A DNA stretch of 63,767 nt, filler included. It is 6 parts of 6 records of this genome, joined end to end, with 100 filler letters (N's around TTAATTAATTAA, not from the genome) between each part and the next. Parts side by side here need not be neighbours in the genome. Positions count along the whole stretch, not along the records: positions 1 to 22,266 come from SRR31156797_14502; 5 more parts are not named here. The stretch is one strand, 5' to 3'. How positions within the stretch are numbered: position 1 is the first letter of the stretch; each line of letters opens with the position of its first letter. Made by a program: the position numbers and the translations under genes. Positions 1,865-27,237 of the stretch are shown piece by piece. Below the pieces are notes generated by a model. That model did no database searches and was not told where the DNA came from. It saw nothing but the letters and a program-made list of their open reading frames with translations.

Positions 1865-2011
1865 AAGAAATAGTGATCCATTTCGATTTAGATTTATTGT
1901 TTTTCCCTTGTTGATGATCTTGACGGATTGAAAGTTGCCAAGGAAGATTTCCTGAAAAATACTACTCCCTGTTGAATTTGAGATATTTGAGTAATGCACT
2001 AGAGAACTCCT

Positions 2012-4347: not shown

Positions 4348-4509
4348 ATGGAAAAAAGTGATCAGAAGAAAACTGAAAAAGAACCTGTGAAACATATTAC
4401 CGTCAAGATTGCGGAAAGTGTTCACCGAAAGTTGAGAATTAAAGCTGCCACGGATGGTCTTCATATGAACAAGCTGTTGGAAAAGATGATTCTTGAATAT
4501 ACGAAGTAA
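4348..4509 (+). CDS. Small ribbon-helix-helix (ParG/CopG-like) DNA-binding protein
   Basis: AGGAGG RBS; KHITVKIAESVHRKLRIKAATDGLHMNKLLEKMILEY fits the beta-helix-helix pattern. Confidence 0.75.
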   Translation: MEKSDQKKTEKEPVKHITVKIAESVHRKLRIKAATDGLHMNKLLEKMILEYTK

Positions 4510-4917
4510 GATATGAATATAAAGTATTCTAAAATGTATTAGGATATGTAATACATTGCTTTGCAAGCTCTTAAACATTCCAGATTTAAAAAATTTGGTG
4601 TTTTTGAGCTTGACAAAGAGGAATTTATCCCTTATCTTGAAATTATCTAAAAAATTGTGAGGGCTGAATTCCAAACTCAGAATTGTAACGAATTTTCACC
4701 ACTGTAATTTATTTGTTTCCAAGCACTACTCCCTGATAGCCCTCAACTGATTCCATCCTGAACAAAATATAGGACATTCTATAGCTGGCGGATTTAGATG
4801 TTTCCAAGCATCTGGAATAGTATGCTTTGTTTCCGGTGGGGAAGGTTGAGGAAAAAACCCGTGGCAAAAAACATCCAAATAGGTGAAAATCCACCAAAAT
4901 ATGGAGGTGGTGGATTC

Positions 4918-6036: not shown

Positions 6037-6058
6037 GTCGGTAGGTAAGCTGTAGGTG
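6028..6058 (+). repeat. Short GTAGGT direct repeats, probable integrase arm-binding sites
   Basis: GGTCGGTAGGTCGGTAGGTAAGCTGTAGGTG between the integrase stop and the att core. Confidence 0.45.
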
Positions 6059-6115
6059 GGATCGGATCAATGAATATAACACCCCGAAATGAATCGTTTG
6101 TTTTTTATTCTCCTT

Positions 6116-6141
6116 GGGTTCGACTCCCGCCGCCTCCACCA
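6116..6141 (+). ncRNA. ssrA: tmRNA 3'-end fragment (attachment-site duplication, not a complete gene)
   Basis: GGGTTCGACTCCCGCCGCCTCCACCA is a T-arm plus alanyl-type acceptor end with CCA; no matching 5' part immediately upstream. tRNA-Ala origin is less likely but not excluded. Confidence 0.75.
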
Positions 6142-6304
6142 AAAAGCGTTCCAATAAAGTCCAATGCAGTCCATAAACCCTGATTCTCACTGTAGATTCG
6201 GGGTTTTTCTTTCCAATACGTTCCAATAAAAGCTATTGACATCCGACGGTACGTGACGGTATTATTAACGGTATCTTCAAGCAACGCCACAGGGAGATAC
6301 CGTC

Positions 6305-6465
6305 ATGCCTCTGACAAACACCGCCATCCGCAACGCAAAACCCACTCCCTTTCTCCATCCGATGGCCTGGGGCTCTGGGCCGCCATGGGGCTCCCCGTCA
6401 GCCTGTTCTGTTTCAAATACGCCCTGAACCGGGCCAAGATGCTGGGGACCCTGGGACATTATTAA
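6305..6465 (+). pseudogene. Frameshifted, truncated P4-family integrase (arm-binding domain only)
   Basis: MPLTNTAIRNAKP in one frame, then SDGLGLW...FCFKYALNRAKMLGTLGHY* in another; resembles P4 Int N-terminus (MPLTDTAIRNAKP..SDGGGLYL..WRFKY..LGxY). ACGGTA repeats at 6246-6273. Confidence 0.8.
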
Positions 6466-6937
6466 AAAGAAAAGGAGTTCCCGAACATTCCTTTGCACTT
6501 AGGTCTGCAGATGGTTATCCATCCAGAGGTCAAAAATGAGTGTCCCCCAGTTCTATCAGCCCCACCCGACCGGCCAGGCTTTCGGATACCCCTCCCCAAA
6601 CGGGGAAGAAACCGAGTAATTCATCCGCCCTTTTTTCGATATCGCGATCCTGGAAAGTCAAATTCGTTGTCTACCAACGAATATTACTGGCGATAACCTG
6701 CAACTCACACGCTGAGAAATTTTTCAATTCATCTTGCGGAAGCGTTACGGCCATGTAAGGGATCTACCGGAACAAGGTGACCATTAACAATGTTGATCCC
6801 AGGTACGGCGACGGCCAGCTCAAAAGGGAAGTGCATTTGGCCAGTCGGAATTAGACATCCGGATTCGTCACCATGGAGGGCTATCAGGTCCCCTTCAAGC
6901 ACGCCGCACCGCATCCATTCCAAATTCAAAACATGAA

Positions 6938-8791
6938 TCATGTCAACCACTGAAGATTGAGCTCCTTCAGTTTTTCAGGCGTGGGCAGGCCTGTGGCCAC
7001 ATCCCAGCCCATGGCCTCATAATAGCTGTTCAGAGCCTCCTCCAGATTCACCACCTGACCCTCACCGACACCGTCTGTGGCCGGCTCCTTCAAAAGTCGA
7101 CCGGGCAGCTTGTCTGCCTTGCGATCGAAACCGTACCTGGAGTTGACCACACGTTCCAGATTGATCACCCGTTCCGCGGCTTTCAGCAGATCCTGCAGGG
7201 AGAGCTCCCGGCCGGTCACCGCCGAATAGAGGGAAGCCCATGTGTTCCCCTTTATGGCCAGGCAGATGGAACCGAACAGACAGGCCCCCAGCAGATTGGT
7301 GGCCATGGAGAGTTCCTGTAGGGGCTTAATCCATGCCTTGTTTCCATCATCCAGAGGATTTTGTTTCTCCGTAATCTGCAATTCTTCATCCAGGTAGCCA
7401 AAGGCGTCGATGACCGAGGCGTACGGCCGTAAATGGTCGGCGCCACGCGGCGAGACGGCATGAACCACGGCCTCGCCCTTGCTGGCACGAACGCCGCAGG
7501 AGGCCATCTCAAGGCCTTTCACCTGAAAAGCGTAATCACCGGCGTCACCCCCCAGTTTTTCAGCCGCCCTCTTGGAGCCTTCCGCCAGCAGATCCCCGAT
7601 CCCCTCTCGATAGGCCATTTTCTTTAAAATTTCCAAAGCCACCGGCACATTTCCCCAGGTCAGTTCAAGACCGTCGGCTTTTTCTTGGGTCAGAATCCCC
7701 CTTTCATACCACTCCATGGCCGTGGCCAGAATCTGGCCCGCGCTGATGGTGTCCAGACCCAGTTCATTGCATTCATAACCCAGCTTTGCCACAGCGCCCA
7801 CATCATTGATCAAGCATTTACTGCCGAAAGCTCCCAGGGTTTCGTATTCGGGTCCGCCGCCGCTTTCGCCGGCATAGGGACCTTCCTTGATGGTGGTCCT
7901 GCGGCCGCAAGCGATACTGCACTGGGCGCAGGCATAGGGTTTCACCTCCAGGGTCTTATGGTAAGCCTCATGGCCCAACACGTCATGGGACTCGGGATAG
8001 GTGGTCCGCTGCCAGTTTTTGGTGGGAAGGGTTCCGGTGGCACTGATTGAGTTGTAGAAACCGGGGGTTCCGAAAGGTTTCAAAAGGCCCGCCGTAAAGG
8101 CTTCGGCCTGGATTTCCTCCTTGGCCTTTTCAGCAGCCGATGTAAGTGCCTGCGGATCAGATACGGAGACTTCCCTGGTTCCAACCACCCCAATAGCTTT
8201 CAGGTTCTTGGAACCGAACACTGCCCCGCCGCCGCCGCGCCCGGCGGCGCGGTGCTTGTGGGTCATCAGGGAGGCGAATCGTATCCCGTTCTCCCCTGCC
8301 GGTCCGATGGAAATGACCTGGGCCGACTTGCCCAGTTTTGCTTTGATATATTCTTCCGTCGGCGAAACCGGTTTCCCCCAAATCCCGGAAGCATCCTCCA
8401 GATCAACACGATCGTCTTCTATGCGAAGCCAGACCGGATGCTGAGCCTTTCCTTTGACCAGCAGCAGATCGTATCCTGCCTTTTTCAATGCCGGGGCAAA
8501 ATGGCCTCCCACATTGCTGATGCCCATGGTATTTGACGCCGGCGAACGAAACACCACCACCAACCGGCCACCCTCCGGGGCGGCGGTCCCGTTCAAGGGA
8601 CCGGTGGCGAAAATGACCGGATTCCGAGGATCGGTCGGGTCCAACTCAGGGTCCAGGTGGTCATAATAGAATCTGGCGGCCAGGCCCTCTCCGCCCAGGA
8701 ATTCCTCGTACCAGGTTTGGGGTATTTCTTCGGTTTCAATAACCTTTGTTGAAAGGTCAACCACTAATGCTTTTTCCATGTATCCGTTCAT
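6938..8791 (-). CDS. aor: Aldehyde:ferredoxin oxidoreductase (W/Mo-pterin AOR family)
   Basis: SNVGGHFAPALKKAGYD, IGPAGEN, RAAGRGGGGAVFGSKNLKAI, CAQCSIAC, GPEYET, GLDTIS motifs; start set at MNGYMEK by RBS. Confidence 0.95.
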   Translation of the reverse strand: MNGYMEKALVVDLSTKVIETEEIPQTWYEEFLGGEGLAARFYYDHLDPELDPTDPRNPVIFATGPLNGTAAPEGGRLVVVFRSPASNTMGISNVGGHFAPALKKAGYDLLLVKGKAQHPVWLRIEDDRVDLEDASGIWGKPVSPTEEYIKAKLGKSAQVISIGPAGENGIRFASLMTHKHRAAGRGGGGAVFGSKNLKAIGVVGTREVSVSDPQALTSAAEKAKEEIQAEAFTAGLLKPFGTPGFYNSISATGTLPTKNWQRTTYPESHDVLGHEAYHKTLEVKPYACAQCSIACGRRTTIKEGPYAGESGGGPEYETLGAFGSKCLINDVGAVAKLGYECNELGLDTISAGQILATAMEWYERGILTQEKADGLELTWGNVPVALEILKKMAYREGIGDLLAEGSKRAAEKLGGDAGDYAFQVKGLEMASCGVRASKGEAVVHAVSPRGADHLRPYASVIDAFGYLDEELQITEKQNPLDDGNKAWIKPLQELSMATNLLGACLFGSICLAIKGNTWASLYSAVTGRELSLQDLLKAAERVINLERVVNSRYGFDRKADKLPGRLLKEPATDGVGEGQVVNLEEALNSYYEAMGWDVATGLPTPEKLKELNLQWLT

Positions 8792-8901
8792 GTTCCCCTC
8801 CTTTCGATCGAAAGTTTTTAAAAGATAAAAGCGATCAGCCACGGCCGGAACAGAAAAATCCGCTCCGCATTTGTCATCCAATGTACCGTTTCGATCTTTA
8901 A

Positions 8902-8930
8902 TTTTTATGGAGGAAGAAGGGGTTTGTCAA
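8902..8930 (-). promoter_or_regulatory. Sigma70-type promoter for aor with an adjacent palindrome (8936-8956)
   Basis: Minus strand TTGACA-N17-TAAAAA; ATCAATT-N7-AATTGAT directly upstream. Confidence 0.55.
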
Positions 8931-9160
8931 ACAGAATCAATTCGGTCAAAATTGATATATTCGTTTTTTTTCAAGGAGTTATAAAAATTGTGCCGGTGGT
9001 GTTCCGAACCGGGCGGGGATACATGCGATCATAAGGCAGCCGTGGGCCTCATACACCATTATGGCATCAAATCCTGCGGTAGGTGTCGGGCCCGCGGCTT
9101 TATCGACGCAATGGTTTTCAATGAGGGAACCCATTTCCGCTTCAAACACGCTCTCAGACC

Positions 9161-10507
9161 TCATCGAACGCCCAGTAGCGCCTCAATAAATCCCGTATGG
9201 TAGTTGCCGGCTCTGAAATCCGGATGTTCAAGTATTTTGATATTGAGCGGAATGGTGGTGCTGATACCATCAATACGGATCGTGCGAAGGGCGTCAATGA
9301 GCCGGGACGTCGCTTCATTCCGGTTTTCTCCACGGGAGATCACCTTGGCCAGCAACGGATCATAGAAAGGCGGTACGCTGCCCCCTTCCTCCAGCGCATG
9401 GTCAATGCGCAAATCCGTGGTCTCAGGAGGCAGATGAAGCGCATGAATGGTACCCGGAGACGGTGCGAATGTCTCGGGATCTTCCGCATAAATCCGGGCT
9501 TCAATGGCGTGGCCGCTCATCCTTATATCCTTCTGGGCCAGATTCAGTTTTTCGCCGGCGGCAATTTCAAGCTGCGTATGGACAATATCCACGCCCGTAA
9601 GAAATTCCGTAACCGGGTGCTCCACCTGAAGTCTGGCATTGATTTCCATGAAATAATAGTCGCCGGACACGGATCTGAGCCCCTCGATGGTACCCGCGCC
9701 CTCATACTTCATGGCTCGGGCCAGACGCAGGGAATAATCAAAAATCGTTTCCCGGTCTTCCGCGCTAACGATGGGTGAGGGGGATTCCTCGATAATCTTC
9801 TGGTGCCGCCTTTGAATGGAACATTCCCGCTCCCCTAAGCAGACATAGTTGCCGAAGTGGTCCCCTAGAAACTGAACTTCCAAATGCCTGGGATTAACCA
9901 CCACCTTTTCCAGATAGCAGTCTGACGAATGGAAGGCGGCCAATCCGATCCGTGAGATGCGCTCAAAAACCGCGGGCACTTCTTCGTCTCGGGTGACCAT
10001 TTCAATCCCCTTGCCCCCACCTCCCTTGTCGAGTTTCAGGAACACCGGATACCCGAACTCGCCTGCAAACCGGTACACCTCATCCACATTCTTTATGGGG
10101 TCCAGGGTTCCGGGGTTGACCGGGACCTTTACGTCTTCGGCTATGTGCCGGCAATAGCATTTAGACTCCACAGCCTTCATGACATGGGGAGAGGGGCCCA
10201 CCCATGTTAGACCCATCTCCAAAGCCGCCTGAGCAAAGTCATAATTCTCCGCAAGAAAGCCATACCCGGGGTGAATGGCATCAGCCCCGGAGTCTTTGGC
10301 GGCCGCCATAATGGCTTCGATATTCAAATAGCTCTTCATGGGATTGGCGGGACCGATGTGGACCGCCTCATCCGCCTGCCTTGTGAAAAGCGCATCCCGG
10401 TCCGCCTCCGAAAAGACGGCCACGGTCTTGATCCCTAAAGGTCTACACGCGCGAATGATGCGTGATACCACCTCTCCGCGATTGGCAATCAACAGTTTTT
10501 CCATCAT
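9161..10507 (-). CDS. Biotin carboxylase subunit
   Basis: LIANRGE, IHPGYGFLAEN, GGGGKGI, ERECSIQRRHQK, EINARLQVEHPVTE. Confidence 0.96.
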   Translation of the reverse strand: MMEKLLIANRGEVVSRIIRACRPLGIKTVAVFSEADRDALFTRQADEAVHIGPANPMKSYLNIEAIMAAAKDSGADAIHPGYGFLAENYDFAQAALEMGLTWVGPSPHVMKAVESKCYCRHIAEDVKVPVNPGTLDPIKNVDEVYRFAGEFGYPVFLKLDKGGGGKGIEMVTRDEEVPAVFERISRIGLAAFHSSDCYLEKVVVNPRHLEVQFLGDHFGNYVCLGERECSIQRRHQKIIEESPSPIVSAEDRETIFDYSLRLARAMKYEGAGTIEGLRSVSGDYYFMEINARLQVEHPVTEFLTGVDIVHTQLEIAAGEKLNLAQKDIRMSGHAIEARIYAEDPETFAPSPGTIHALHLPPETTDLRIDHALEEGGSVPPFYDPLLAKVISRGENRNEATSRLIDALRTIRIDGISTTIPLNIKILEHPDFRAGNYHTGFIEALLGVR

Positions 10508-10740
10508 TTGAATAAACCTGTCTCTGTCTCAAGAATGACCATTGTGTCTTCCACCTGCATTTCATCCCATTCCTTGACCAGAACTTCTTTCACCACGCCA
10601 TCCACATGGGAGACAACGGACATTTCATTTTTCATGCAGTTAATGACCGCCACTTCCTGCCCTTCTTTGACACTTTCGCCCTCATTGACCACCACCCGGG
10701 CCACGAGACCCGGCATATGCGCATTGATGTTGACATCCAT
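10504..10740 (-). CDS. Biotin carboxyl carrier protein
   Basis: 78-aa biotinyl domain, AHMPG...CMKNEM; overlaps the biotin carboxylase start (ATGA). Confidence 0.9.
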   Translation of the reverse strand: MDVNINAHMPGLVARVVVNEGESVKEGQEVAVINCMKNEMSVVSHVDGVVKEVLVKEWDEMQVEDTMVILETETGLFK

Positions 10741-10823
10741 ATTAAAATTAACCTCCTGTTTTAATTTATCTTCTTAGAGCAAATCGACAGTTTAATACAA
10801 AACCGAAGATCCACCACCATTGA

Positions 10824-11807
10824 TCAGGCGAACGAAGCCTCCGTAAAGAGTGCTTTCTGGGCCTTTCGCGCTTCCACCGCCTCGTCAAGGGTACAATAGT
10901 CGAACCGGATAAAGTCCCTGCTGGGGGTTCCCTGCCCGATTTTCCACAGGTCGGCGTTTATGACCGTGAGGGCGCACAGGTAACCGCCCAGGGTAGGCCC
11001 GTCGGCAATCAAGATGATGGGGGTATTGCCGCACACATTGAGCGCCCCCCGCATGCTGTAAGCATGATCCACAATATTCGAAGGATGGCTGCCGCCTACG
11101 CCGCCGTCTTTACGTGCAAAAAAGTAATCGGGAAGTTCTTCGAGCCGGTATGCGGAACGATTTGACGTGTGCTGCACTTTAAAGGAATGGTCAAAAAGGT
11201 AATCCATCCCTTCTTTGGTGACATAGTCCGGTACGGAGTTCGGTCCCGGTGTCGCTCTCAGTCGCCACTCTCTCTCATATTCGGGTATGACTTCCTTTCG
11301 AAGTTTCCTCTCTGCAAGGGCCTTCAGATCCCCCTGCGCTTCTCCGGCTTTCAACACATCGCCGGGCGCCAGTTTTCGGCCTTCAAAGCCACCGTAACTT
11401 CCAAAAATACAGGTGGATTTACTGCCGAGATAGGGTGGCACATCGATGCCGCCCGCAAAGGCCATATAGGTTCTAAAACCGAATTCACCAAAATGGTCGA
11501 ATTTGATTTTATCGCCTTTGGTCACGGCAAAGGATTCCCACATGGGCACCTGCTGACCGTTGATGGTGGGTTTCATATCGGTGCCGGTCAGGCTGATGAC
11601 CCCCTTTTCCGTAAACTCCCCCTCAAAATAACCGCCCGTAATTTCAAGACCTGCTTCACCTTTTTCATTGCCAACCAGAAGATTGGCGAATTGAAGCGCC
11701 ACATTATCAAAGGCCCCTGAAGACGCCATGCCTTTGCCCAAATAACCCAATCGGCCGGGCCAGTCCTCCACCAGGGTTTCTACGCCGCCATTAATGACTT
11801 TCAACAT
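10824..11807 (-). CDS. PxpC-like / urea-carboxylase carboxyltransferase subdomain A-B protein
   Basis: VEDWPGRLGY, ANLLVGN, GGIDVPPYLGSKST, DGPTLGGY. Confidence 0.9.
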   Translation of the reverse strand: MLKVINGGVETLVEDWPGRLGYLGKGMASSGAFDNVALQFANLLVGNEKGEAGLEITGGYFEGEFTEKGVISLTGTDMKPTINGQQVPMWESFAVTKGDKIKFDHFGEFGFRTYMAFAGGIDVPPYLGSKSTCIFGSYGGFEGRKLAPGDVLKAGEAQGDLKALAERKLRKEVIPEYEREWRLRATPGPNSVPDYVTKEGMDYLFDHSFKVQHTSNRSAYRLEELPDYFFARKDGGVGGSHPSNIVDHAYSMRGALNVCGNTPIILIADGPTLGGYLCALTVINADLWKIGQGTPSRDFIRFDYCTLDEAVEARKAQKALFTEASFA

Positions 11808-11834
11808 TCGGATATCCTCCTAGCAAACAAACGG

Positions 11835-12821
11835 TTATAGCCGAGGGGCTGATTTTACGCCTATCGCCTGTTTCGCCTGAAACGCTTTCGCACCCTCTTT
11901 CACCTCTTCGGAATTGATGAACGCCAGGTAGTCCTTTACCATGATCTTTCCCTGGTCGATTTCGTATTCATAATCGGTTTTTTCATGCACGTGTTCATAG
12001 ATATGCAGGATTTCATCTTCCGATACCTCGTGAAATCGGATCCTGTCGCCGTTGCGGTACAGGAACGGCGTCTCCTTGAATAAGGGATGTTTCTGTACAA
12101 ATTGAAATGTGGGAATGGTCCTTCCAAAGAGCTGATAACCGCCACCGGTTTCCGTGGTATAGGTAAATATGCAAGGCCCTCCAATGCCCACGGTTCCCTC
12201 GGGGGTATAGGTGCGGGGCGGATTGTATTTGGGCACCACAATGGCGCATCTGGGATCCATGGGCCAGAAGAATCCGCCGCCCGGCCAGAATCCGCACCCG
12301 CTGTTATACCATTCGGTACCGAGAACCTTGGCCTTGATTTCTTCAACGGTAATGCCGTTACACAGGGCCATATATTCCAGGTTGTAGCCGTTGATCACGT
12401 TGGGGGCATCCGGCCGCACCTCTTTTATGTATTTGGCCACGGCCTTTTTGGTTTCGCTGTCTTCAAAAGCGATGGGAAGGTGAATAATACGGGATTCCAG
12501 CTCGATGTGTTCAACATCCGTCAGGGCTTCTTCTGCCCCTTGGATCGTTTCCATCAGGCTTTTCACATCCAACTCTTCCGGATCATAGTGAAAGAGGTTC
12601 GTTCGAATGCCGGGCACCGTTTCAATGAGTCCTTTCAGGTTTTTCTTGACCATGGTATCATTAACCGTACCGATCCTGAAAGAATCCAGCAAATTGGCCC
12701 GCTGCTCCCTTCCATATTCCACCTGCAGAAAACCGTCACCGGCCTGTCTGAAAAGGATTTCCAGCCTTGACTGGGTTTCCGGAAGGGTCTCCAGAACCAC
12801 GTTGTAAGCATCAAGATCCAT
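11835..12821 (-). CDS. PxpB-like / urea-carboxylase carboxyltransferase subdomain C-D protein
   Basis: RQAGDGFLQVEYG, GFWPG, PKYNPPRTYTPEGTVGIGG, GGYQLFGRT. Confidence 0.9.
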   Translation of the reverse strand: MDLDAYNVVLETLPETQSRLEILFRQAGDGFLQVEYGREQRANLLDSFRIGTVNDTMVKKNLKGLIETVPGIRTNLFHYDPEELDVKSLMETIQGAEEALTDVEHIELESRIIHLPIAFEDSETKKAVAKYIKEVRPDAPNVINGYNLEYMALCNGITVEEIKAKVLGTEWYNSGCGFWPGGGFFWPMDPRCAIVVPKYNPPRTYTPEGTVGIGGPCIFTYTTETGGGYQLFGRTIPTFQFVQKHPLFKETPFLYRNGDRIRFHEVSEDEILHIYEHVHEKTDYEYEIDQGKIMVKDYLAFINSEEVKEGAKAFQAKQAIGVKSAPRL

Positions 12822-12888
12822 TTTCTTTCATTCCTCCTGTTGGTAAGTTGACGGGGGATGAGCGAGAAGAACTGCCGCTCGCCAATCG

Positions 12889-13641
12889 TTAAAGGGCCGG
12901 GGCTTTAATGGCGTATCCGGCCCTCTCCAATTCATCATGAACCGCCACCACGATATCCGATGCGTTGGACGTATCAGAATGGAGACAAACCGAAGATCCT
13001 TCAATGGATATTTCAGTGCCGTCCGTGGCGGCGACTTTACCTTCCCTGACCATTTTAATGACCCGGGCGGCGATGTCTTCCGGTTTTCGAACATCATGGT
13101 GCCGGGTAATCACCAGATTCCCTTCATTGTCATAATCCAGATCAGCATATAATTCGTAAACCACCCGAATGCCCATTTTCTCCGCAACGCCGCCGGCGAC
13201 CCCTTTCTTCATGATGTAAAGATAAAGGTCGCGGTCCACATCCAACAGAGCCTGGCACACGGCTTCGGCCACTTCCTCGCGGCGCATGGCCATGCCGTAA
13301 AGGGATCCGTGGGGCTTCACATGATGAAGCCTGAGGCCGGCAGCCTCTGTAAACGCCTTGAGAGCACCCACCTGATAAACCATGTCATCATGTATTTCTT
13401 CCATGCTCAAGTTCATCTCTCGTCGACCAAAACCCTGAAGGTCCGGCAAGCCGGGATGGGCCCCCACCTGAACCCCGTATTTTTTGGCCAGGGCAACGGT
13501 CCGTTTCATGACGGTGGGATCACCTGCATGAAAAGCGCAAGCCACATTGGCGCTGGTGATGTATTTCATGAAGCCTTCGTCGTCGCCCATATTATACATA
13601 CCAAAACTTTCACCCATATCCGCATTAAAATCAATGTTCAT
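12889..13641 (-). CDS. pxpA: LamB/YcsF family protein (5-oxoprolinase subunit A-like)
   Basis: DFNADMGESFG, SANVACAFHAGDP, GAHPGLPDLQGFGRR, HVKPHGSLY, CLHSD. Confidence 0.95.
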   Translation of the reverse strand: MNIDFNADMGESFGMYNMGDDEGFMKYITSANVACAFHAGDPTVMKRTVALAKKYGVQVGAHPGLPDLQGFGRREMNLSMEEIHDDMVYQVGALKAFTEAAGLRLHHVKPHGSLYGMAMRREEVAEAVCQALLDVDRDLYLYIMKKGVAGGVAEKMGIRVVYELYADLDYDNEGNLVITRHHDVRKPEDIAARVIKMVREGKVAATDGTEISIEGSSVCLHSDTSNASDIVVAVHDELERAGYAIKAPAL

Positions 13642-13663
13642 TTTCTTCTCCTTAATTGTTTCT

Positions 13664-14623
13664 TTATCGGCCTTTGATGGAAAGTCTGAACTGGTCCATC
13701 ACAACCGCGAAAATGAGTAAACATCCCATAACCACCATTTGGAGATAGGAACTGATGTTCATGAGGTTCATGCCGTTCCGAATGAGAACAATCAGTATGG
13801 CGCCGAAAATGGCGCGGACCACGCCGCCCTCGCCGCCCCGCAACGATACACCGCCAATCACCGCCGCCGCGATGGACTCCAGGGGAAGTGCCGCTCCCAG
13901 GTTGGGTTCGCCCGAAGCCACTCTGGCCGTGAGCATCACACCCGCGATACCCGTAAGTGTTCCGCACAGAACATAGGCCAGACATGTATATTTTTTTACG
14001 GCAATCCCGGACAGGCGGGCCGCCTCCTGGTTGCCCCCCAGGGCATAAAAATAACGCCCCACACGGGTCCGGTTCAACAAAATATAAACCAGCACCGCCA
14101 CGACAACGGCCACAATCACCGGCACCGGTATGCCGGCAACTTTTCCCACGCCCAAGAGCTGGTTCAATTGGTCGGGCAGGTTGAAAATGGGGACCCCCCC
14201 TGAAATCAGCAGCGCCAGACCGTGAATAACCGACATGGTTCCCAATGTTACCACAAAGGGAGAAACACGGAAAACGGCAATGGTAATGCCGTTGGCAAGC
14301 CCCACCAGGGCGGCGGTCAAAATACCCGCTATGATACCGATGATCATACCCATCACGGGAGAACTCATGGAAACCATGACAGTGGAGGTGACGATACTGG
14401 TCAAAGCCACTGAAGAGCCCACCGACAGATCGAATCCGGCACAGAGAATCGTCATCATTTGACCCGCCGTTACAATGGCCAGATAAGTGGCTTGACGCCC
14501 CACGATCATCATATTGGAGCCGGTCATAAAACGGCTTTCCGCCACGCTGAACAAGATGAACAGGGCTACCAGCAAAAACGGCAGCACACCGACCTTAACG
14601 AAAGTTTTCTTTAACCATTCCAA
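13664..14623 (-). CDS. ABC transporter permease (RbsC/CUT2 type)
   Basis: GFDLSVGS, GRYFYALGGNQEAARLSGI, IAAAVIGGVSLRGG. Confidence 0.95.
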   Translation of the reverse strand: MEWLKKTFVKVGVLPFLLVALFILFSVAESRFMTGSNMMIVGRQATYLAIVTAGQMMTILCAGFDLSVGSSVALTSIVTSTVMVSMSSPVMGMIIGIIAGILTAALVGLANGITIAVFRVSPFVVTLGTMSVIHGLALLISGGVPIFNLPDQLNQLLGVGKVAGIPVPVIVAVVVAVLVYILLNRTRVGRYFYALGGNQEAARLSGIAVKKYTCLAYVLCGTLTGIAGVMLTARVASGEPNLGAALPLESIAAAVIGGVSLRGGEGGVVRAIFGAILIVLIRNGMNLMNISSYLQMVVMGCLLIFAVVMDQFRLSIKGR

Positions 14624-14661
14624 TTGTCGCTATTGCTCCCTGTTGTTTTCACCTAAAACCT

Positions 14662-14816
14662 GCAATTAGCGTTTAGCTATTAGCAGTTAGCTTAAAAGAA
14701 TCAAAGATTTGCACGACTTTCGCCCTTATTGGCACTCTCATTTGTTGATGTTGCTCAATTTCATCATAGTCGTTTGAAATGATATGGCTAATAGCTAACT
14801 GCTAACAGCCAACAGC
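14662..14816. repeat. Inverted arrays of 7-bp tandem repeats (nnTTAGC x4 ... GCTAAnn x4)
   Basis: AATTAGC GTTTAGC TATTAGC AGTTAGC on the left and GCTAATA GCTAACT GCTAACA GCCAACA on the right, around a ~95-bp spacer. Confidence 0.8.
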
Positions 14817-16307
14817 ATCTTGCTCATACCCGAAACAACCGCTCAAAACCATTTCCTCCGTGGCCTTTTCCCCGGGGATGGTCAGGATATTGGTTCCCGC
14901 ATGCATGACCATGACCGTATGACTCAAATTCAGGACTTCGGGAAGCTCGGATGAGATGAAAATGACGGCCGCTCCCGCTTCCGCCTGCTCTTTCAGGAAA
15001 AGGTAGACATCGTGCTTGGCGCCCACATCAATGCCGCAGCTGGCTTCATCAAATATGAAAACTTTGGTATCCCGGGTAATACCCCTCGACAGCATGACTT
15101 TCTGCTGATTACCGCCGCTCAGATAATTGATGGTCTGATGAATCTTCCCGGGCCGAATCTTCATCTTTTCCACAATCTGTTTCACGGTCCCCTCTTCTTT
15201 TCGCGTGTCAATAAAGCCATTCTTTTCAAATAGGGGCACCGACAGGAGGGTCTGGTTTTCCTTGACGGACCGGCACAGAACCAATCCTTCCTTGTGGCGA
15301 TCGGCTGGGAAATAGAGGACGCCATTTTGAATGCAGCGGCCGGGTGTGGGCTTGACAAACGGTTTGTTGTTCAAGGTCACGTGGCCGGACCTGATTTCAT
15401 CCAGCCCGAAAAGCGCACGGCCCACCCGTGACTTGCCGGCCCCCACCAGACCGGCGATTCCCAGAATTTCCCCGGCACGCACCTTAAAAGAGATATCCCG
15501 CAGACCACTGGCGGTGGAAAGGCGGTCGACCGACAGGACCGTTTTTCCCGGGTCATGGCTGATCTTGGGGAAGATCTCTTCCACTTCCCGACCGGTCATG
15601 AGCGATATGAGGGTTTCCTCATCCGCCTTGGCCATCTCCAAGGTGCGGATCTTTTTACCGTCCCGCAGGATGGTGATTCGATCTCCGATCTGTTTCAGTT
15701 CGTCAATTCGATGGGAGATGTAGATGACGCCGACACCATCTCCGATGAATCTTCGAATGATTTCAAAGAGACGCTGCACTTCCCTATCCGTGAGGGACGC
15801 GGTGGGTTCATCAAGGATCAGGACGCGCATGCGGTGTTGAAAGGCCTTTGCAATCTCCACCATCTGCCGTTCAGCTCTCGGCATTTCGCCGACCTTGGCC
15901 AAAGGGTTTAAATCAAACCCCAAATCCTTCAGGGATTCTTCTGCTTTCAGACGCATGGATTTCTTATCCAGAAATCCATTTCGGCCGATTTCGCTGCCCA
16001 AAAACAGATTCTCAACCACGGACAGCTGGGGCACCAGACTGAATTCCTGGTAAACGGCGGAAATCCCGGCCACCCGGGCGTCATAGGGGTTCTTGAATTC
16101 GACGCTTCTGCCATCCAGATACAACGTTCCTTCATCCGCCAGGTAGGATCCCGCCAGGATCTTGTTCAGCGTGGACTTTCCCGCTCCATTCTCACCGAAC
16201 AGAACATGAACTTCACCGGGACGGAGATCAAAGGAGACATTGTCCAGGGCCAAAACGCCCGGAAAGCGTTTGGTGATATTCAGGGCTTTTAAAAGCAGTT
16301 CTTCCAT
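14802..16307 (-). CDS. ABC transporter ATP-binding protein (RbsA type, two NBDs)
   Basis: [26 protein letters not shown]. Confidence 0.96.
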   Translation of the reverse strand: MEELLLKALNITKRFPGVLALDNVSFDLRPGEVHVLFGENGAGKSTLNKILAGSYLADEGTLYLDGRSVEFKNPYDARVAGISAVYQEFSLVPQLSVVENLFLGSEIGRNGFLDKKSMRLKAEESLKDLGFDLNPLAKVGEMPRAERQMVEIAKAFQHRMRVLILDEPTASLTDREVQRLFEIIRRFIGDGVGVIYISHRIDELKQIGDRITILRDGKKIRTLEMAKADEETLISLMTGREVEEIFPKISHDPGKTVLSVDRLSTASGLRDISFKVRAGEILGIAGLVGAGKSRVGRALFGLDEIRSGHVTLNNKPFVKPTPGRCIQNGVLYFPADRHKEGLVLCRSVKENQTLLSVPLFEKNGFIDTRKEEGTVKQIVEKMKIRPGKIHQTINYLSGGNQQKVMLSRGITRDTKVFIFDEASCGIDVGAKHDVYLFLKEQAEAGAAVIFISSELPEVLNLSHTVMVMHAGTNILTIPGEKATEEMVLSGCFGYEQDAVGC

Positions 16308-16380
16308 AGCGCCGCCTGTTCATGAATGTTCGATGGGCCTCCAAATGAGACCCATCGCGAATTTCCATTTTTACGCGTTT

Positions 16381-17547
16381 TTATTTCCTGGGCGCCACTT
16401 TAAACTCCGGCCTGAATCCCCGGCTCCCGAACAGGAGTTCGTAAGGATATTGGGCCATGTTTTTCTTTGTGATGGTCGGAATGATGGGGCCCGCCCTGAA
16501 AGGGAAATCCTTTCCCGGTTTCTCACCGTTGAGGATGCGAACCATCATATCCACTGCCATCTGCCCCTGGGTGACCGTCAGATCGGAAGGCGCTGCCGCC
16601 ACCAGACCTTTTCCGATTTTGTCGTAAAGGGGCGGAATGATGTAGGTGGAAACCACTTTGACATCCTTTCGGCCTGCTTCAGCCAACGGACCCACGGCTG
16701 CGTCGGCAGCCACGGCATTCCCCACCAGATAGTCAATCTTGGGAAAGGCCTGAAGTGTATCTTCAATCAAACTCAGCTGTACGTTCTTCCCGGTATCGCC
16801 CCATTTAACGGCCAGAATGTTCACTTTCCCATCAAATTTCTTGATGGCTTCCTTAAACCCATCCAATGTATCCGGCGCCCATCCGGAACCGGCGGGACCC
16901 GGAAGGAAAACCACATTGACCTCGGGTTTTCCTTTGGCATCTCCCACCACGAACTCTCCGGCGTGATACCCCATATCATAAAAAGATACCAATGCTTTTG
17001 CCTGAATGGCGGACGCTTTGATATCATTGATCACTTCGATAACGGGAATTCCCTTTTTCACAATTTCTCCAACAACCGGATCCAGACCGGTGTAGGAAAT
17101 GGACGCCAAAATGATGCCGTCGACCCCTTGCTGTGAAAGGTTCTCTACCTGGTTGACCTGCTTGCCCAACTCGGTATAGCCACCTGCTGCCACCAACTGA
17201 ATCCCCACACCCAGTCTTTTCGCCTCCTGAATAATACCGTAGTCAACTGCCAGCCAGTAAGGATCCTTCAGGTGTGGAAAAGAAACACCGATTGTATAGG
17301 GCTTGTTGGCTTTGGCGGGGGGCACCCAGTCCTCCAACTTGGGGCCGTCAAGACTCGGAGAGGGCCTTCCCGGCTTCTTTTCTTTCACATCATAGGCGCC
17401 GTAATAAGCGTTTACTTTGACCGGCCACCATGGTTTCTCTTCCGCAAAGCAGAGTCCGGCACTGAGAACAAAAACAAGCCCCGTTGCCAAGAGAATCGAC
17501 TTTCCCCATCTACCTTTTTTCAAAACTCTTTTTCCCATCATGCTCAT
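16381..17547 (-). CDS. Periplasmic substrate-binding protein, TorT-like
   Basis: Signal peptide; FPHLKDPYWLAVDYG, AGGY, LPGPAGSGW, WGDTGK match the TorT family. Confidence 0.88.
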   Translation of the reverse strand: MSMMGKRVLKKGRWGKSILLATGLVFVLSAGLCFAEEKPWWPVKVNAYYGAYDVKEKKPGRPSPSLDGPKLEDWVPPAKANKPYTIGVSFPHLKDPYWLAVDYGIIQEAKRLGVGIQLVAAGGYTELGKQVNQVENLSQQGVDGIILASISYTGLDPVVGEIVKKGIPVIEVINDIKASAIQAKALVSFYDMGYHAGEFVVGDAKGKPEVNVVFLPGPAGSGWAPDTLDGFKEAIKKFDGKVNILAVKWGDTGKNVQLSLIEDTLQAFPKIDYLVGNAVAADAAVGPLAEAGRKDVKVVSTYIIPPLYDKIGKGLVAAAPSDLTVTQGQMAVDMMVRILNGEKPGKDFPFRAGPIIPTITKKNMAQYPYELLFGSRGFRPEFKVAPRK

Positions 17548-17611
17548 TCTCCTCTCTTCTTGGTTGACGGTTGAACATCTGACATTGTCCCTGAAGCTTC
17601 TGTCCAGGGTA

Positions 17612-18919
17612 TCAAACTGCGGAAATTTCCTGCAGGCTTTCCTTTAGAATGGAAATGCCTTTTTCCAGTTGCGCATCGGTGATCACCAGCGGCATGAGCG
17701 TCCGGATGACATTGCCGTAATTCCCGCAGGCCAGAACAATCAGACCCTTTTCCAGACAGCGGCCTACAAGCGCCTTGGCTTTGGCCGCAGCCGGTTCCCT
17801 GGTCTGCCTGTCTTCCACCAATTCCATGGCAAGCATGAGACCGAGTCCACGGACATCCCCGATAATTGAAAATTCCTCCTGAAGATTTAAAAAGTGGTTT
17901 TTAACTCTTTCTCCCAGTTTTTCAATGCCCTCCAGAAAATCATCCGTCAGTAAATCCAGTACGGCCAGGGCAGCCCGGCATGCAACCGGATTGCCGCCGA
18001 AGGTCCCCCCCAAAGCGCCGACGGGCGGCATTTCCATGATGTCGGATTTTCCGGTAATACCGGCAAGGGGCAAACCGGCGGCAAGGGATTTGGCGGTCAG
18101 AATGATGTCCGGTGCAACACCGTAATGTTCGGAAGCAAAGCGTTTGCCGGTCCTTCCCATACCTGTCTGGATCTCATCCATTATAAAAAGGACGCCGTTT
18201 TCCTCGCATATGGCGGCAATCTTTTTAAAATATTCCAAGGGAGGAACAACAAATCCGCCTTCTCCCTGAATGGGTTCGGCAATGACCGCGGCCACGGATT
18301 CCGGTTCCGCATAGCTTATGAAAAAATGCTCCAGCGCATCCGCGCAGAAGATATCGCAGGACGGATAGGTCCGGCCAAACGGACAGCGGTAGCAATAGGC
18401 AAAAGGCATTCGATACACTTCGGGGCAGAAAGGGGCAAAACCTGATTTATACGGTTTTACCTTGCTGGTAAGGCTCATGCCCATGTAGGTCCGCCCGTGA
18501 AAAGCGTTTTCAAAAGCGATAATGCCCTGTTTCTTCGTGGCATATCGGGCCACCTTGACACCGTTTTCAACGGCCTCGGCACCGCTGTTGACAAAGAAAG
18601 TTTTTTTCGGAAAATCCCCCGGTGTTATCTCATTGAGACGTTGGGCAAGTGCCACATAGGGCTCGTACATGCTGATGTGAAAACAGGTATGCAGGTACTG
18701 TTGGGCTTGATCCTGGATGGCCGCAACCACTTTCTCATTGCAGTGCCCCACATTGACGACGCCGATTCCACCGGCGAAATCGATAAAATGATTTCCTTCC
18801 ACATCTTCGATCATGGCGCCCCGAGCGCGTTTCACAAAGATGGGCGATACGTTGAACGGTCCTTTCGGCACATGCTTGGCACGCAATTCCAATAACTGTT
18901 GATTTGTGTTTGTCTCCAT
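17612..18919 (-). CDS. gabT: 4-aminobutyrate / 5-aminovalerate aminotransferase (class III PLP)
   Basis: IDFAGGIGVVNVGH, NSGAEAVEN, FHGRT, EPIQGEGG, DEIQTGMGRTG, AKSLAAGLPL, GGTFGGNP. Confidence 0.94.
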   Translation of the reverse strand: METNTNQQLLELRAKHVPKGPFNVSPIFVKRARGAMIEDVEGNHFIDFAGGIGVVNVGHCNEKVVAAIQDQAQQYLHTCFHISMYEPYVALAQRLNEITPGDFPKKTFFVNSGAEAVENGVKVARYATKKQGIIAFENAFHGRTYMGMSLTSKVKPYKSGFAPFCPEVYRMPFAYCYRCPFGRTYPSCDIFCADALEHFFISYAEPESVAAVIAEPIQGEGGFVVPPLEYFKKIAAICEENGVLFIMDEIQTGMGRTGKRFASEHYGVAPDIILTAKSLAAGLPLAGITGKSDIMEMPPVGALGGTFGGNPVACRAALAVLDLLTDDFLEGIEKLGERVKNHFLNLQEEFSIIGDVRGLGLMLAMELVEDRQTREPAAAKAKALVGRCLEKGLIVLACGNYGNVIRTLMPLVITDAQLEKGISILKESLQEISAV

Positions 18920-18999
18920 AATAAAACTCCTTAAAAATCGATCTTTCCGATTGCCGCCGATTTTCTTTAACCCCAATGTTTCATCCCTTGACCCGGGTT

Positions 19000-19350
19000 T
19001 TATCTATTGTTTGGTGAAATCCTGAACGCCGATCCCTTTCCGGGATAATGGGATTCCGCATTGATGCCTTTCACCCTTGTAAAACCCGCTTCAGTCAGTT
19101 TGAGTACGGCTTCTTTCATATCTTCCGAAGGAAGAAGCAACAAAACGCATGCCGTCCCATCGATTTCGCCGATCTGCCGGTGAGCGGGAGACATACCCCC
19201 TTCGGCCAAAACGCCCAAGGCCTTTTCAAGGTTGTTGCCGCGCGTTTCCACCTCCACAATAACCTGAGCCTTGGAAGGGTGAGCCGCCAGGTTTTCTGAA
19301 AGATCATCAAAAGACTCACACACTTTCTCGGATTTCTTCCAGGTGGTCAT
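19000..19350 (-). CDS. Small hypothetical protein, possibly ACT-like; first gene of the operon
   Basis: 116-aa ORF between the sigma54 promoter and gabT; beta-alpha-beta-beta-alpha pattern ending LKLTEAGF. Confidence 0.65.
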   Translation of the reverse strand: MTTWKKSEKVCESFDDLSENLAAHPSKAQVIVEVETRGNNLEKALGVLAEGGMSPAHRQIGEIDGTACVLLLLPSEDMKEAVLKLTEAGFTRVKGINAESHYPGKGSAFRISPNNR

Positions 19351-19418
19351 GAATCAGATCCCAACTCAAAGATTCCTTTCCGGGGTCATCAAAAACAACA
19401 TGTTTCAGTGGAACCTAC

Positions 19419-19434
19419 AGCAAGTTTTGTACCG
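19419..19434 (-). promoter_or_regulatory. Sigma54 -24/-12 promoter of the gabT-ABC-pxp operon
   Basis: Minus strand CGGTAC-AAAAC-TTGCT (GG-N10-GC), next to a sigma54 activator gene. Confidence 0.75.
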
Positions 19435-19779
19435 TTATGGGGAAAAAGTGGCTTGAGAGCAGCAGTCTTTTACTCGGAAGGCTGAAATGGAACCTGTAAA
19501 TATGGATTTGAAGGGAATCGGGTCGATTCCATAAGGGATTTATTTTTCCATATTTGCACGCAACAAGCAAGGAGCCGGCAATACGCACTGAATCATGATT
19601 TTTGTTGAGAGATTCATCGTACGCGTTGGGTTATCCCCGAATCCGTAAACAAATAAAGGAATCCCAAAACGGTTGAAGCGTTACGGAAATGTAAAACCCC
19701 ACCTACCAAAAAACAGAATTGTAGATTTTATGGGAAAAATCCGAAAACGTTAACTGGAAGCATAGTTCGGGCGTTGCAT

Positions 19780-21543
19780 TTATGCATCATTATGCATTAT
19801 TGACTCGAAATTGATGCCGTATCGACTCACTTTTCTAGACAATGTGGACTGGTTAACACCCAAAAGCCGGGCCGCCTTTCTTTGGCTGCCACATTTATGC
19901 ATTGCCTTGGAGATCATTTGTTTCTCCAATCCTTTAACGGCTTTTAATAGGTTCCAATCCTTGATTTCGGACACTTCTGAAAAACTTTTACCACTACCGC
20001 GCACATGGACCGGTAAGTCTTCATAACTGATGCGATTTCCCTGTGTCAGAACCACCAACTGTTCAATCAGGTTTGACAATTCCCGGATGTTACCGGGAAA
20101 TGCATAGCTGCTGATGCAGTCCATGGCGGAACGGGAAAAAAACTTGTTCATGGCGTATTTTTCATTTAGACGGCTGAGGAAATGGTAAATAAAGACAGGC
20201 ACATCCTCACGCCTCTTTTTCAGGGGCGGAATGTATATGGGCACCACATTCAGACGAAAGAAAAGATCATTCCGAAAGGCACCATCAGATACCATTTTTT
20301 CAAGATCCCTGTTGGTTGCAGCGATAACCCTGGTGTCGATGGACTTTGCGCGGGCGCCTCCGATTTTTACGATTTCATTGTCTTCCAAAAACCTCAATAA
20401 TTTTACCTGAACGCTCAGTGGAAGATCTCCGATTTCGTCCAGGAAAAGCGTGCCGCCCTCGGCCAGTTCAAATTGACCGTTTTTGCCATCTCGAAGCGCA
20501 CCTGTAAAAGCGCCTTTTTCGTATCCGAACAGCTCCGACTCGATCAATGATTCGGGGATGGCACCGCAGTCCACACGAATGAAAGGCCCATCACGCCGCG
20601 GAGAGGCATTGTGGATAAAACCGGCCACAAATCCCTTCCCAACACCCGATTCTCCTTGAATCAAGACCGTTGAATCCACCTGGGCGACTCTTAGGGCCCT
20701 GTCAAACAAACGCGCCATTTCATCGCTCCGAAAAACCGTGCCGGCCAAAAGCTTCTCCTGTTCGGTTTTGAGAGATAATTCGGAACGATAGCTTAGGGCA
20801 AGGGCCCGGCTTTCTTCCAATTCATTGCGCAATCGGTTCAAGTTGGTAATATCCCGTTCATTTACAACGACCAAATATATTTCCCCAGTGTTATCGCGTA
20901 CCGGGTTTCCGGTGACAAGGATCTGACGCCCGTTTTTGAGATTTTGTATCATGGTAACACCCGTACGTTTCCTGAGAACTTCCAGGGTCACGGAACGATC
21001 CACTACGCCTTCCTGAATGAGCGTTTCCATGGATTTGCCGATGACATTTTCGGCCTGTATATTATTGATTTTTTCGGAAGCATCGTTCACATTCACCACT
21101 TTGCCATTCCTGTCACAGATCCAGAGACCATCAAAGGAGGAGTTAATAATGGCATGGAGTTCCTTGTTGACCCGCTTGTACGATCCCAACTGCCCTGCGA
21201 TTTTTTCATAATCCGATATATCCTGGAAAACGCTCATGGCGCCAACCACTTCCTGATTGCGAAAAACGGGTGTTCGATTGGCAATAATCGTAAATCGGTC
21301 AATGGTTATCTTTTTTCCAATCTGGGACTCGCCCGTCAGAAGAATCCGTTCCAGGTCATCCCATGCTTCGGGGGACACCTGTTGAATGGACTTTCCCAGT
21401 ACTTTTTCGGGGTCCCGGGAAAGCACATCGGCTGCAGCCCGGTTGTAAACCACGACAATGCCTTGCCTGTCAATGATCACCACGCCATTGTGAACCGCAT
21501 CCAGTATCTCTCGAAAATGTTCAAGTGAATCAAAAAAATGCAT
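19780..21543 (-). CDS. PAS-PAS sigma54-dependent enhancer-binding activator
   Basis: Two PAS-like domains, GESGVGKG, ESELFGYEKGAFTGA, LFLDEIGD, FPGNIREL, C-terminal HTH. Confidence 0.96.
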   Translation of the reverse strand: MHFFDSLEHFREILDAVHNGVVIIDRQGIVVVYNRAAADVLSRDPEKVLGKSIQQVSPEAWDDLERILLTGESQIGKKITIDRFTIIANRTPVFRNQEVVGAMSVFQDISDYEKIAGQLGSYKRVNKELHAIINSSFDGLWICDRNGKVVNVNDASEKINNIQAENVIGKSMETLIQEGVVDRSVTLEVLRKRTGVTMIQNLKNGRQILVTGNPVRDNTGEIYLVVVNERDITNLNRLRNELEESRALALSYRSELSLKTEQEKLLAGTVFRSDEMARLFDRALRVAQVDSTVLIQGESGVGKGFVAGFIHNASPRRDGPFIRVDCGAIPESLIESELFGYEKGAFTGALRDGKNGQFELAEGGTLFLDEIGDLPLSVQVKLLRFLEDNEIVKIGGARAKSIDTRVIAATNRDLEKMVSDGAFRNDLFFRLNVVPIYIPPLKKRREDVPVFIYHFLSRLNEKYAMNKFFSRSAMDCISSYAFPGNIRELSNLIEQLVVLTQGNRISYEDLPVHVRGSGKSFSEVSEIKDWNLLKAVKGLEKQMISKAMHKCGSQRKAARLLGVNQSTLSRKVSRYGINFESIMHNDA

Positions 21544-27226: not shown

Positions 27227-27237
27227 GACAATCCCGG

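Follow-up and report, generated by a model that had tools for sequence, protein, structure and literature searches.

The stretch of DNA analyzed here (hereafter, the window) spans 63,767 nucleotides, filler included; its positions 1-22,266 correspond to record SRR31156797_14502, and its later parts are other records joined through runs of 100 Ns. In the region 6938-21543 we found, by open reading frame (ORF) calls and searches with Pfam and NCBIfam, twelve genes, all on the minus strand, which form a candidate locus for the degradation of lactams. From 5′ to 3′ these encode a sigma54-dependent activator, an ACT-like protein, a GabT-class aminotransferase, an ABC import system with a TorT-like binding protein, a hydrolase of the LamB/PxpA family, two carboxyltransferase (CT) subunits, a biotin carboxyl carrier protein (BCCP), a biotin carboxylase (BC) and an aldehyde:ferredoxin oxidoreductase (AOR). 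A preliminary description of this DNA had named these genes, their order and their single strand, all of which we recovered. From the gene for the ACT-like protein through that for the BC, the intergenic gaps range from −4 to 178 bases, with the BC start overlapping the BCCP stop by 4 bases; a gap of 369 bases separates the BC gene from aor.

The activator (19780..21543) combines two N-terminal PAS domains (6.6e-25, in 2 stretches), an AAA+ domain (Sigma54_activat, 9.2e-70) and a C-terminal helix-turn-helix (HTH_50/HTH_8); its top NCBIfam model is PrdR (477 bits, under the cut-off of 795). A candidate −24/−12 (sigma54) promoter with a GG-N10-GC core and 2 mismatches to the 15-base consensus (19420..19434, minus strand) lies about 70 bases 5′ of the first operon gene, which codes for the 116-aa ACT-like protein (19000..19350). 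The earlier label of this protein as ACT-like stands insofar as its AlphaFold model displays a β-α-β-β-α-β order and is paired most closely by Foldseek with ACT regulatory subunits of aspartate kinase (E 4.8e-5, TMq 0.55), but the model has a pLDDT of only 60 and the protein matches no Pfam or NCBIfam model (Atlas scores 0.76-0.79). A protein of ~109 aa at the same position in other loci gives no match to it in BLASTP but is homologous by hhalign (93.6%, E 2.2e-7), and in one related locus (L001) an ACT-like copy precedes each of two GabT genes. The import system comprises a TorT-like (CUT2-type) periplasmic binding protein (16381..17547; Peripla_BP_4, 2.5e-32; NF008185, 299.5 against a cut-off of 200) with a signal peptide and PDB matches to 4yhs (6.7e-83) and TorT (3o1h, 1.2e-38), an ABC ATPase with two fused ATP-binding domains (14802..16307; ABC_tran, 5.1e-49, in 2 stretches), whose NCBIfam matches are of the ribose/arabinose type with none reaching its cut-off, and an ABC permease (13664..14623; BPD_transp_2, 1.5e-36). 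The LamB/PxpA-family hydrolase (12889..13641; LamB_YcsF PF03746, 3.7e-92) scores 308.6 bits with NF003814 (cut-off 226) and matches PDB 1v6t at 1.1e-72.

The remaining carboxylase proteins jointly tile a complete urea carboxylase (UC), which is split into four polypeptides with a permuted gene order. On the NCBIfam UC model of 1201 positions, the ATP-grasp BC (9161..10507; Biotin_carb_N, CPSase_L_D2 and Biotin_carb_C) covers positions 2-441 (460.8 bits), the CT_A_B subunit (10824..11807; CT_A_B, 3.3e-79) positions 449-764 (296.5 bits), the CT_C_D subunit (11835..12821), a UC-like long form of 328 aa, positions 788-1096 (236 bits), and the minimal BCCP of 78 aa (10504..10740; Biotin_lipoyl, 2.2e-13) positions 1133-1201; because of the split, no single subunit reaches the whole-protein cut-off of 1303.85. 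Both CT subunits score far higher on the UC model than on those of PxpB (52.6 bits for CT_C_D, cut-off 145.55) and PxpC (179.1 for CT_A_B, cut-off 500), such that the PxpABC equivalog set is incomplete, with PxpA passing its subfamily model and PxpB and PxpC falling short. The CT_C_D protein aligns over its full length to the UC of Kluyveromyces lactis and is part of a tight family, 326-332 residues in length, with 655 homologues, the best 120 of which are 68-91% identical to it; the best 120 longer homologues, mostly ~1200-aa proteins named urea carboxylase, share 33-40% identity with it. The Met-Lys at residues 36-37 of the BCCP (M36-K37), the canonical biotinyl-lysine motif, is invariant in 40/40 aligned carriers.

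A comparison of 17 CT_C_D family members with 102 fused UCs shows a common framework, catalytic Lys included, and a rebuilt pocket. K198 of the CT_C_D subunit is kept in all 17 family members and at least 90% of the 102 UCs, and aligns with K1605 of the K. lactis urea amidolyase (KlUA), which probably acts as general base in CT catalysis according to the published description (PMC5770610). The Asp of a Gly-Leu-Gly-Asp segment, found in 99% of the fused UCs, is deleted in 17/17 family members, where an invariant stretch with many Phe, Trp and Gly residues, and an invariant Pro, takes the place of the surrounding segment, and some forty more positions are fixed differently between the two sets. 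We take this UC-invariant Asp of the CT_C_D part to be a residue that binds urea. Candidate columns for the published Asp/Asn position that distinguishes guanidine from urea carboxylases number three in CT_A_B (Asn, Asn and Asp in the family) and one in CT_C_D (Glu).

These features bear on the alternative that the operon encodes a split carboxylase of urea, another small amide or guanidine for nitrogen scavenging, with PxpA replacing allophanate hydrolase. The complete tiling of UC and the retained Lys would fit such an enzyme, as would sigma54 control, which is common for nitrogen genes. The published account of the similar mum operon of Acinetobacter baumannii reads it as a urea carboxylase, and the same account reports that deletions of its LamB and PxpB/C-like genes had no effect on urea use (PMC5050338). 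The absence of an allophanate hydrolase amidase, claimed in the preliminary description, is borne out, as neither an amidase nor an allophanate hydrolase was detected among the window genes scanned, and the allophanate hydrolase model TIGR02713 has no match above its cut-off in any of five related genomes. Rfam returned 0 matches over the whole window, hence no guanidine riboswitch, and DUF1989 (carboxyguanidine deiminase) is found in 1/5 of these genomes, on a contig other than that of the locus. The deletion of the Asp, the rebuilt pocket and the lack or scarcity of these partner functions support an enzyme that is UC-like, yet predicted not to be a urea or guanidine carboxylase; as carboxylation of urea or guanidine would also leave the linkage to GabT and AOR (see below) unexplained, we hold this alternative to be very improbable.

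The GabT-class aminotransferase (17612..18976; Aminotran_3, 5.7e-128) scores 548 bits with TIGR00700, above the cut-off of 506.65, and its 11 best PDB matches are all γ-aminobutyrate (GABA) aminotransferases, with that to Escherichia coli GabT (6.7e-124) beginning at query residue 23; the true start of the gene is probably the ATG at 18919. The last gene (6938..8791) probably starts at its ATG at 8791, which a ribosome-binding site of the GGAGG type precedes, and its product matches AFOR_N (2.6e-76) and AFOR_C (1.2e-125) and aligns from residue 1 with PDB 9mqx (9.6e-136) and 1aor (5.1e-124). By these domains, the CxxCxxxC motif for a 4Fe-4S cluster in its translation, and this full-length similarity, it is a member of the tungsten/molybdopterin AOR family.

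To place these genes in context, we searched contigs with a profile from the CT_C_D family alignment, which gave 126 confirmed relatives, and kept the best 80 with flanks of at most 10 kb (full 20-kb regions in 48 cases), counting genes by tblastn with the window proteins and recurrent neighbors. Apart from one metagenome-assembled genome of Myxococcota, the 80 loci belong to Bacillota and Desulfobacterota-type lineages, and we presume all these groups to be anaerobes. Cultured carriers of related loci include Desulfotruncus arcticus DSM 17038, Pelotomaculum propionicicum, Desulfoferrobacter suflitae, Desulfocucumis palustris and Anoxynatronum species. PxpA and CT_A_B are each present in 76 of the 80, BCCP in 70 and BC in 60, followed by GabT within 10 kb (41), the sigma54 activator (40) and the TorT-like binding protein (23). 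AOR-family genes occur in 28 loci, with the window's AOR as the best match in 10 and a second paralogue in 19 (one locus carries both types, hence 29 rather than 28); with the 4 loci featuring a molybdenum/2Fe-2S (MOP) aldehyde-oxidoreductase-like protein, any aldehyde oxidoreductase is found in 32. The co-occurrence of gabT and aor with the pxp and BC genes had been set beforehand as the point on which the lactam reading could fail, and linkage was found: GabT or an aldehyde oxidoreductase accompanies the core in 52/80 loci and both do so in 21/80. Among the 48 full-length loci, the corresponding counts are 28 with GabT, 21 with an aldehyde oxidoreductase and 34 with either.

GabT frequently sits within the operon of the related loci and occupies at least eight positions: 3′ of the ACT-like gene, the arrangement of the window; between pxpA and a CT gene (13 loci); upstream together with the second AOR paralogue; in divergent orientation to that paralogue; between the activator and a CT gene; 3′ of the BC gene; in a reversed AOR-glutamate dehydrogenase-GabT block; and beside hydantoinase-type genes. 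As the carrier genomes have up to four GabT-class genes per 4-8 Mb, chance would place one within 10 kb in ~1% of cases. The varied gene orders and the filling of one step by three unrelated or paralogous aldehyde-oxidizing enzymes argue for selection on the linkage. Of the genomes whose locus lacks GabT, five were examined, and all five encode one elsewhere that exceeds the cut-off.

The place of aor in the operon is less firm than that of the other genes, and the operon could be as we propose with aor an independent downstream gene. This would agree with the 369-base gap, with a probable mobile-element border just past aor, and with a sigma70-like motif 5′ of aor (TTGACA-18-AAAAAT, 10/12; 8901..8930, minus strand). 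Of the promoter of its own that had been claimed for aor, the motif is indeed present, but such motifs are no more frequent in the region than in shuffles (16 against 14.0 expected). The motif scan found no terminator-like site on the minus strand between the BC gene and aor, terminator-like matches being, like the sigma54 and sigma70 motifs, not commoner than in shuffles. Moreover, 6 loci besides that of the window have an orthologue of its AOR (56-79% identity) adjoining the cluster, in four different arrangements, and the presence of the second paralogue in 19 loci and of the molybdenum enzyme in 4 amounts to non-orthologous displacement at a single functional step. An independent aor is a contender that we nevertheless rate as rather unlikely.

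An alternative that retains the biotin chemistry is a biotin-dependent 5-oxoprolinase, whose product glutamate would be deaminated by glutamate dehydrogenase, leaving GabT and AOR as unrelated neighbors. The PxpA clears the PxpA subfamily cut-off, glutamate dehydrogenase is encoded in 7 of the 80 loci, and a SatP-like carboxylate channel found in 18 would suit an anionic substrate. The CT subunits, though, fall below the PxpB/PxpC equivalog cut-offs and score far higher on UC, a canonical short PxpB is encoded elsewhere in 2/5 of the related genomes, and GabT and the aldehyde oxidoreductases, linked in 52/80 loci and often within the operon, would have no role after glutamate. In Pseudomonas putida, according to the published description, 5-oxoproline and butyrolactam are each handled by a paralogue of their own. 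On balance, we consider a 5-oxoprolinase improbable, if somewhat less so than a urea or guanidine carboxylase. Under the lactam reading that we prefer, the glutamate dehydrogenase of the 7 loci would recycle the 2-oxoglutarate used by GabT.

The neighborhoods of the related loci offer further clues to the substrate of the proposed lactam-degrading operon. In two loci (L011, L073), GabT lies beside a CoA transferase of the acetyl-CoA-hydrolase/transferase family and an iron-containing alcohol dehydrogenase (Fe-ADH), the former locus also featuring an HpaB-family dehydratase-like protein, and two others (L015, L018) carry the Fe-ADH with an HpaB-family protein. This set is presumably that of GABA fermentation via 4-hydroxybutyrate in Clostridium aminobutyricum; none of these proteins reaches its NCBIfam cut-off. 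Hydantoinase A/B genes adjoin the cluster in 4-5 loci (L041, L071, L072, L067, L033), and their best models are those of the caprolactamase subunits CapA (510 bits) and CapB (348 bits), both under the cut-off of 1000; two distinct ATP-dependent lactamase systems may thus be encoded next to each other in these organisms. Three of the hydantoinase loci also carry GabT and glutamate dehydrogenase, and two of these the second AOR paralogue. Because some loci carry the caprolactamase-like genes or the 4-hydroxybutyrate gene set, the clue to the substrate is GABA. A gene for carbonic anhydrase is found in two loci.

An Old Yellow Enzyme (OYE)-type ene-reductase of ~360 aa is linked to the core in 15/80 loci from both Desulfobacterota and Bacillota (e.g., L002, 13703-14797); the models that it matches best, NamA, BaiCD and the bilirubin reductase N-domain, all score under their cut-offs, and a larger OYE-fusion protein is found in 2 further loci. 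This linkage may point to unsaturated lactams and raises the alternative of the same enzyme logic applied to another lactam, namely δ-valerolactam or ε-caprolactam, with 5-aminovalerate or 6-aminohexanoate as the product, or an α,β-unsaturated lactam first saturated by the OYE. Such substrates would also be in keeping with the caprolactamase-type matches of the adjoining hydantoinase genes and the family-specific pocket rich in Phe and Trp, and GabT-class enzymes often accept longer ω-amino acids. Weighing against them, the window has neither OYE type, its GabT clears the cut-off of a GABA-specific equivalog, and the extra genes of the four loci with Fe-ADH fit a C4 route through 4-hydroxybutyrate. 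Besides 5-oxoprolinase, the sole PxpABC-type lactamase with a genetic assignment, according to the published description, acts on butyrolactam. We accordingly judge another lactam, and with it either of these longer products, to be unlikely.

Taken together, we propose that the locus is an operon under sigma54 control for the catabolism of a small, stable lactam, most likely 2-pyrrolidinone (butyrolactam), which is processed via GabT and AOR; from the gene content and its conservation, we regard this as probable. The lactam would be imported by the TorT-like binding protein and the ABC transporter. The BC, with ATP and bicarbonate, would carboxylate the 78-aa carrier, from which the two UC-like CT subunits would transfer the carboxyl onto the lactam's amide nitrogen, much as urea is converted to allophanate. 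The LamB/PxpA hydrolase would then open the activated ring and the resulting carbamate would lose CO2, for a predicted net reaction of lactam + ATP + H2O to ω-amino acid + ADP + Pi. With 2-pyrrolidinone, GabT would convert the resulting GABA to succinate semialdehyde, and the AOR would oxidize the latter to succinate with reduction of ferredoxin. What we observe directly is the gene content, from which biotin can be taken to be involved, the tiling of UC domains, the loss of UC-specific residues and the conserved linkage to GabT and aldehyde oxidoreductases; we infer which lactam is used, that it is activated by N-carboxylation, that PxpA opens the ring and that AOR acts on succinate semialdehyde. 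The sequence from ring opening through an ω-amino acid and a semialdehyde to a dicarboxylate, suggested in the preliminary description, is thus supported by the comparative evidence, and the pathway role of the operon is, by analogy, predictable from fungal and Pseudomonas genetics (see below). More tentatively, and with the balance somewhat against it, we posit that the operon encodes a self-contained member of an undescribed class of biotin enzymes, a “lactam carboxylase-hydrolase”, which would meet the energy cost of opening a thermodynamically stable ring amide by N-carboxylation from carboxybiotin, followed by hydrolysis and release of CO2. A search of the open-licence PMC and bioRxiv literature yielded nothing relevant on a biotin-linked lactamase, which is weak evidence of its absence from print; in the same literature, a self-contained biotin module, a split UC-like transferase and a ferredoxin-linked aldehyde step in anaerobes are likewise undescribed.

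Several observations weigh against this proposal. Neither GabT nor an aldehyde oxidoreductase is found in the DNA available for 28 of the 80 loci, and since the loci are mutually related, the counts across them are not independent events. The two closest relatives of the locus (L001 and L002, ~90% identity) have at the position of aor the other AOR paralogue with an OYE gene, or an OYE gene alone, and the window's aor is set apart by its distance from the BC gene and its promoter-like motif. The candidate sigma54 promoter is a weak lead, since the window has 70 matches of this kind where shuffles would give 65.6. In 3/5 of the related genomes, the UC-like CT_C_D is the sole CT_C_D gene, for which reason a 5-oxoprolinase role retains some of its probability. 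The best NCBIfam model of the Fe-ADH is sulfoacetaldehyde reductase rather than 4-hydroxybutyrate dehydrogenase, and an OYE has no role in simple 2-pyrrolidinone catabolism. Finally, in the loci without an ABC importer, the only membrane proteins are DUF1097 proteins or the SatP-like channel, a 201-aa protein with no Pfam or NCBIfam match that the Atlas places with the SatP-like acetate/succinate channels (0.96); these could be exporters of the product or a sign of a carboxylated or anionic substrate.

Some of the related loci show additional associations. In three of them (L005, L032, L052), the gene for the TorT-like protein, ahead of the same enzyme genes, has as neighbors those for a histidine kinase with PAS and for an NtrC-type response regulator in place of ABC genes, which suggests, by analogy to TorT with TorS, that it might sense the inducer there. 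The closest relatives (L001, 16551-20937, and L002) have a second operon 3′ of the cluster, which codes for the ACT-like copy, the second GabT, an M20 deacylase of the ArgE/DapE family and a Liv-type ABC importer, and may serve an N-acylated ω-amino acid. A plasmid search recovered no copy at 60% identity or above, the best being at 43% in Thermomicrobium roseum. On the megaplasmid of this aerobic thermophile (L081; NC_011961.1, 742007-760906), the same cassette at 43% identity is accompanied by a TorT-like ABC system, a three-subunit enzyme of the xanthine dehydrogenase family, a divergent accC and BioY; RefSeq names parts of it TorT, acetyl-CoA carboxylase and 5-oxoprolinase subunit PxpA.

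Outside the operon, the window is a compositional mosaic. An AT-rich block (positions 1-6900, 31-37% GC against ~52% in the operon) begins just past the aor stop and probably marks a mobile-element border; its minus strand encodes a resolvase (883-1491), and its plus strand a protein of 637 aa with an N-terminal flagellin region (2012-3925) and a phage-type integrase (4798-6036). Upstream of the activator, at 22455-28248, three genes on the minus strand code for a pentapeptide-repeat protein of 351 aa, a DUF2169 protein of 1239 aa that also has pentapeptide repeats, and a protein of 336 aa with collagen-like repeats; DUF2169 has been linked to type VI secretion. The mosaic nature is apparent from the climb of the GC content to 58-64% at 28000-40000, where a 779-aa SSF-family protein and an efflux set of OEP, HlyD-like and AcrB-like proteins are encoded. 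The AcrB-like ORF (439 aa) spans profile positions 5-404 of 1021 and is followed by an ORF of 424 aa without a family, and the pump gene may be split or frameshifted. ARAGORN detected zero tRNA genes over the window.

Five- and six-membered lactams are chemically very stable and include 2-pyrrolidinone, valerolactam, the monomers of nylon-4 and nylon-5, and products of the breakdown of solvents and polymers. To our knowledge, the only enzymes that open such lactams use ATP, and these are poorly characterized in vitro. If our proposal is correct, the biotin enzyme family gains a new reaction type, and a function is assigned to a widespread cassette that databases label with the unrelated names TorT, acetyl-CoA carboxylase and 5-oxoprolinase. 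It could also explain how the PxpABC enzymes use ATP. If the posited enzyme class exists, all lactamases of the PxpABC/LamAB type, the widespread 5-oxoprolinase included, might draw on carboxybiotin from carriers of other enzymes. It would also give strict anaerobes a way to reduce ferredoxin while converting lactams to succinate, with the AOR link pointing to a gain of reducing power, and OYE partners might extend this route to unsaturated lactams.

Among the characterized systems, the lam genes of Aspergillus nidulans are a eukaryotic parallel. According to the published description, the regulator AmdR controls lamA and lamB for lactam catabolism together with gatA and gabA for ω-amino acid catabolism (PMC8016842), such that a LamB-family protein and its partner gene are co-regulated with the genes for a GABA transaminase and a GABA permease. 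As in the fungus, LamB/PxpA is linked to GabT in our case, by a shared operon in the window and by proximity of at most 10 kb in the 41 loci noted above. The window differs in its bacterial origin, the UC-like part in four permuted genes, the TorT-type ABC importer and sigma54 control, and in having an AOR where an NAD-dependent dehydrogenase (GabD) would be expected. A bacterial precedent is the PxpABC-type system PP_2920-2922 of P. putida KT2440, which we liken to the window on the basis of its published description: PP_2920-2, a pxpABC paralogue, is reported to be required for the use of butyrolactam as a nitrogen source by fitness data, deletion and complementation, the regulator PP_2919 to respond specifically to butyrolactam, and 5-oxoproline to be handled by a separate pxpABC paralogue (bioRxiv 10.1101/2021.12.09.472016). 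The system differs from the window in its three subunits, with no dedicated BC or carrier mentioned in that description, a regulator not of the sigma54 type and an aerobic host.

The PxpABC 5-oxoprolinases themselves (E. coli YbgJKL and those of Bacillus subtilis and Corynebacterium glutamicum) share with the window a PxpA along with cyclophilin-like CT_C_D/CT_A_B partners, and are described as opening a five-membered lactam using ATP, the hydrolysis of 5-oxoproline having an equilibrium far towards the ring (Keq ~0.035) (PMC13274462); because the equilibrium favors the ring, such ring openings consume ATP. By comparison, the window has CT subunits of the long UC type with their own BC and BCCP, and we propose that its product is channeled to GabT rather than to glutamate metabolism as in PxpABC. 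Urea amidolyase and guanidine carboxylase have the same domain set as the window enzyme, with 33-40% identity and the catalytic Lys kept; the latter differs from them in being split and permuted, in the deletion of the UC-invariant Asp and its many pocket substitutions, and in lacking the allophanate hydrolase, carboxyguanidine deiminase and riboswitch of their pathways. The caprolactamases CapAB and OplBA provide a functional analogy, in that their published accounts describe an ATP-driven opening of stable lactams to ω-amino acids that are then transaminated (PMC8453981, PMC6838509), but they belong to an unrelated protein family and do not use biotin. Finally, mumTLUHC of A. baumannii and MSMEG_0435-0436 of Mycobacterium smegmatis, as presented in the published descriptions, likewise combine LamB and/or PxpB/C-like proteins with a BC or carrier. 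The PxpC/PxpB homologues of M. smegmatis are reported to bind the biotin of the carrier domain, MSMEG_0435 binding that of the BCCP, and to be devoid of urea carboxylase activity (PMC13012033). In contrast to the window, these systems are described with short PxpB/C-type subunits and without GabT or AOR, and with different neighbors, namely an NRAMP transporter or an acyl-CoA carboxylase complex.

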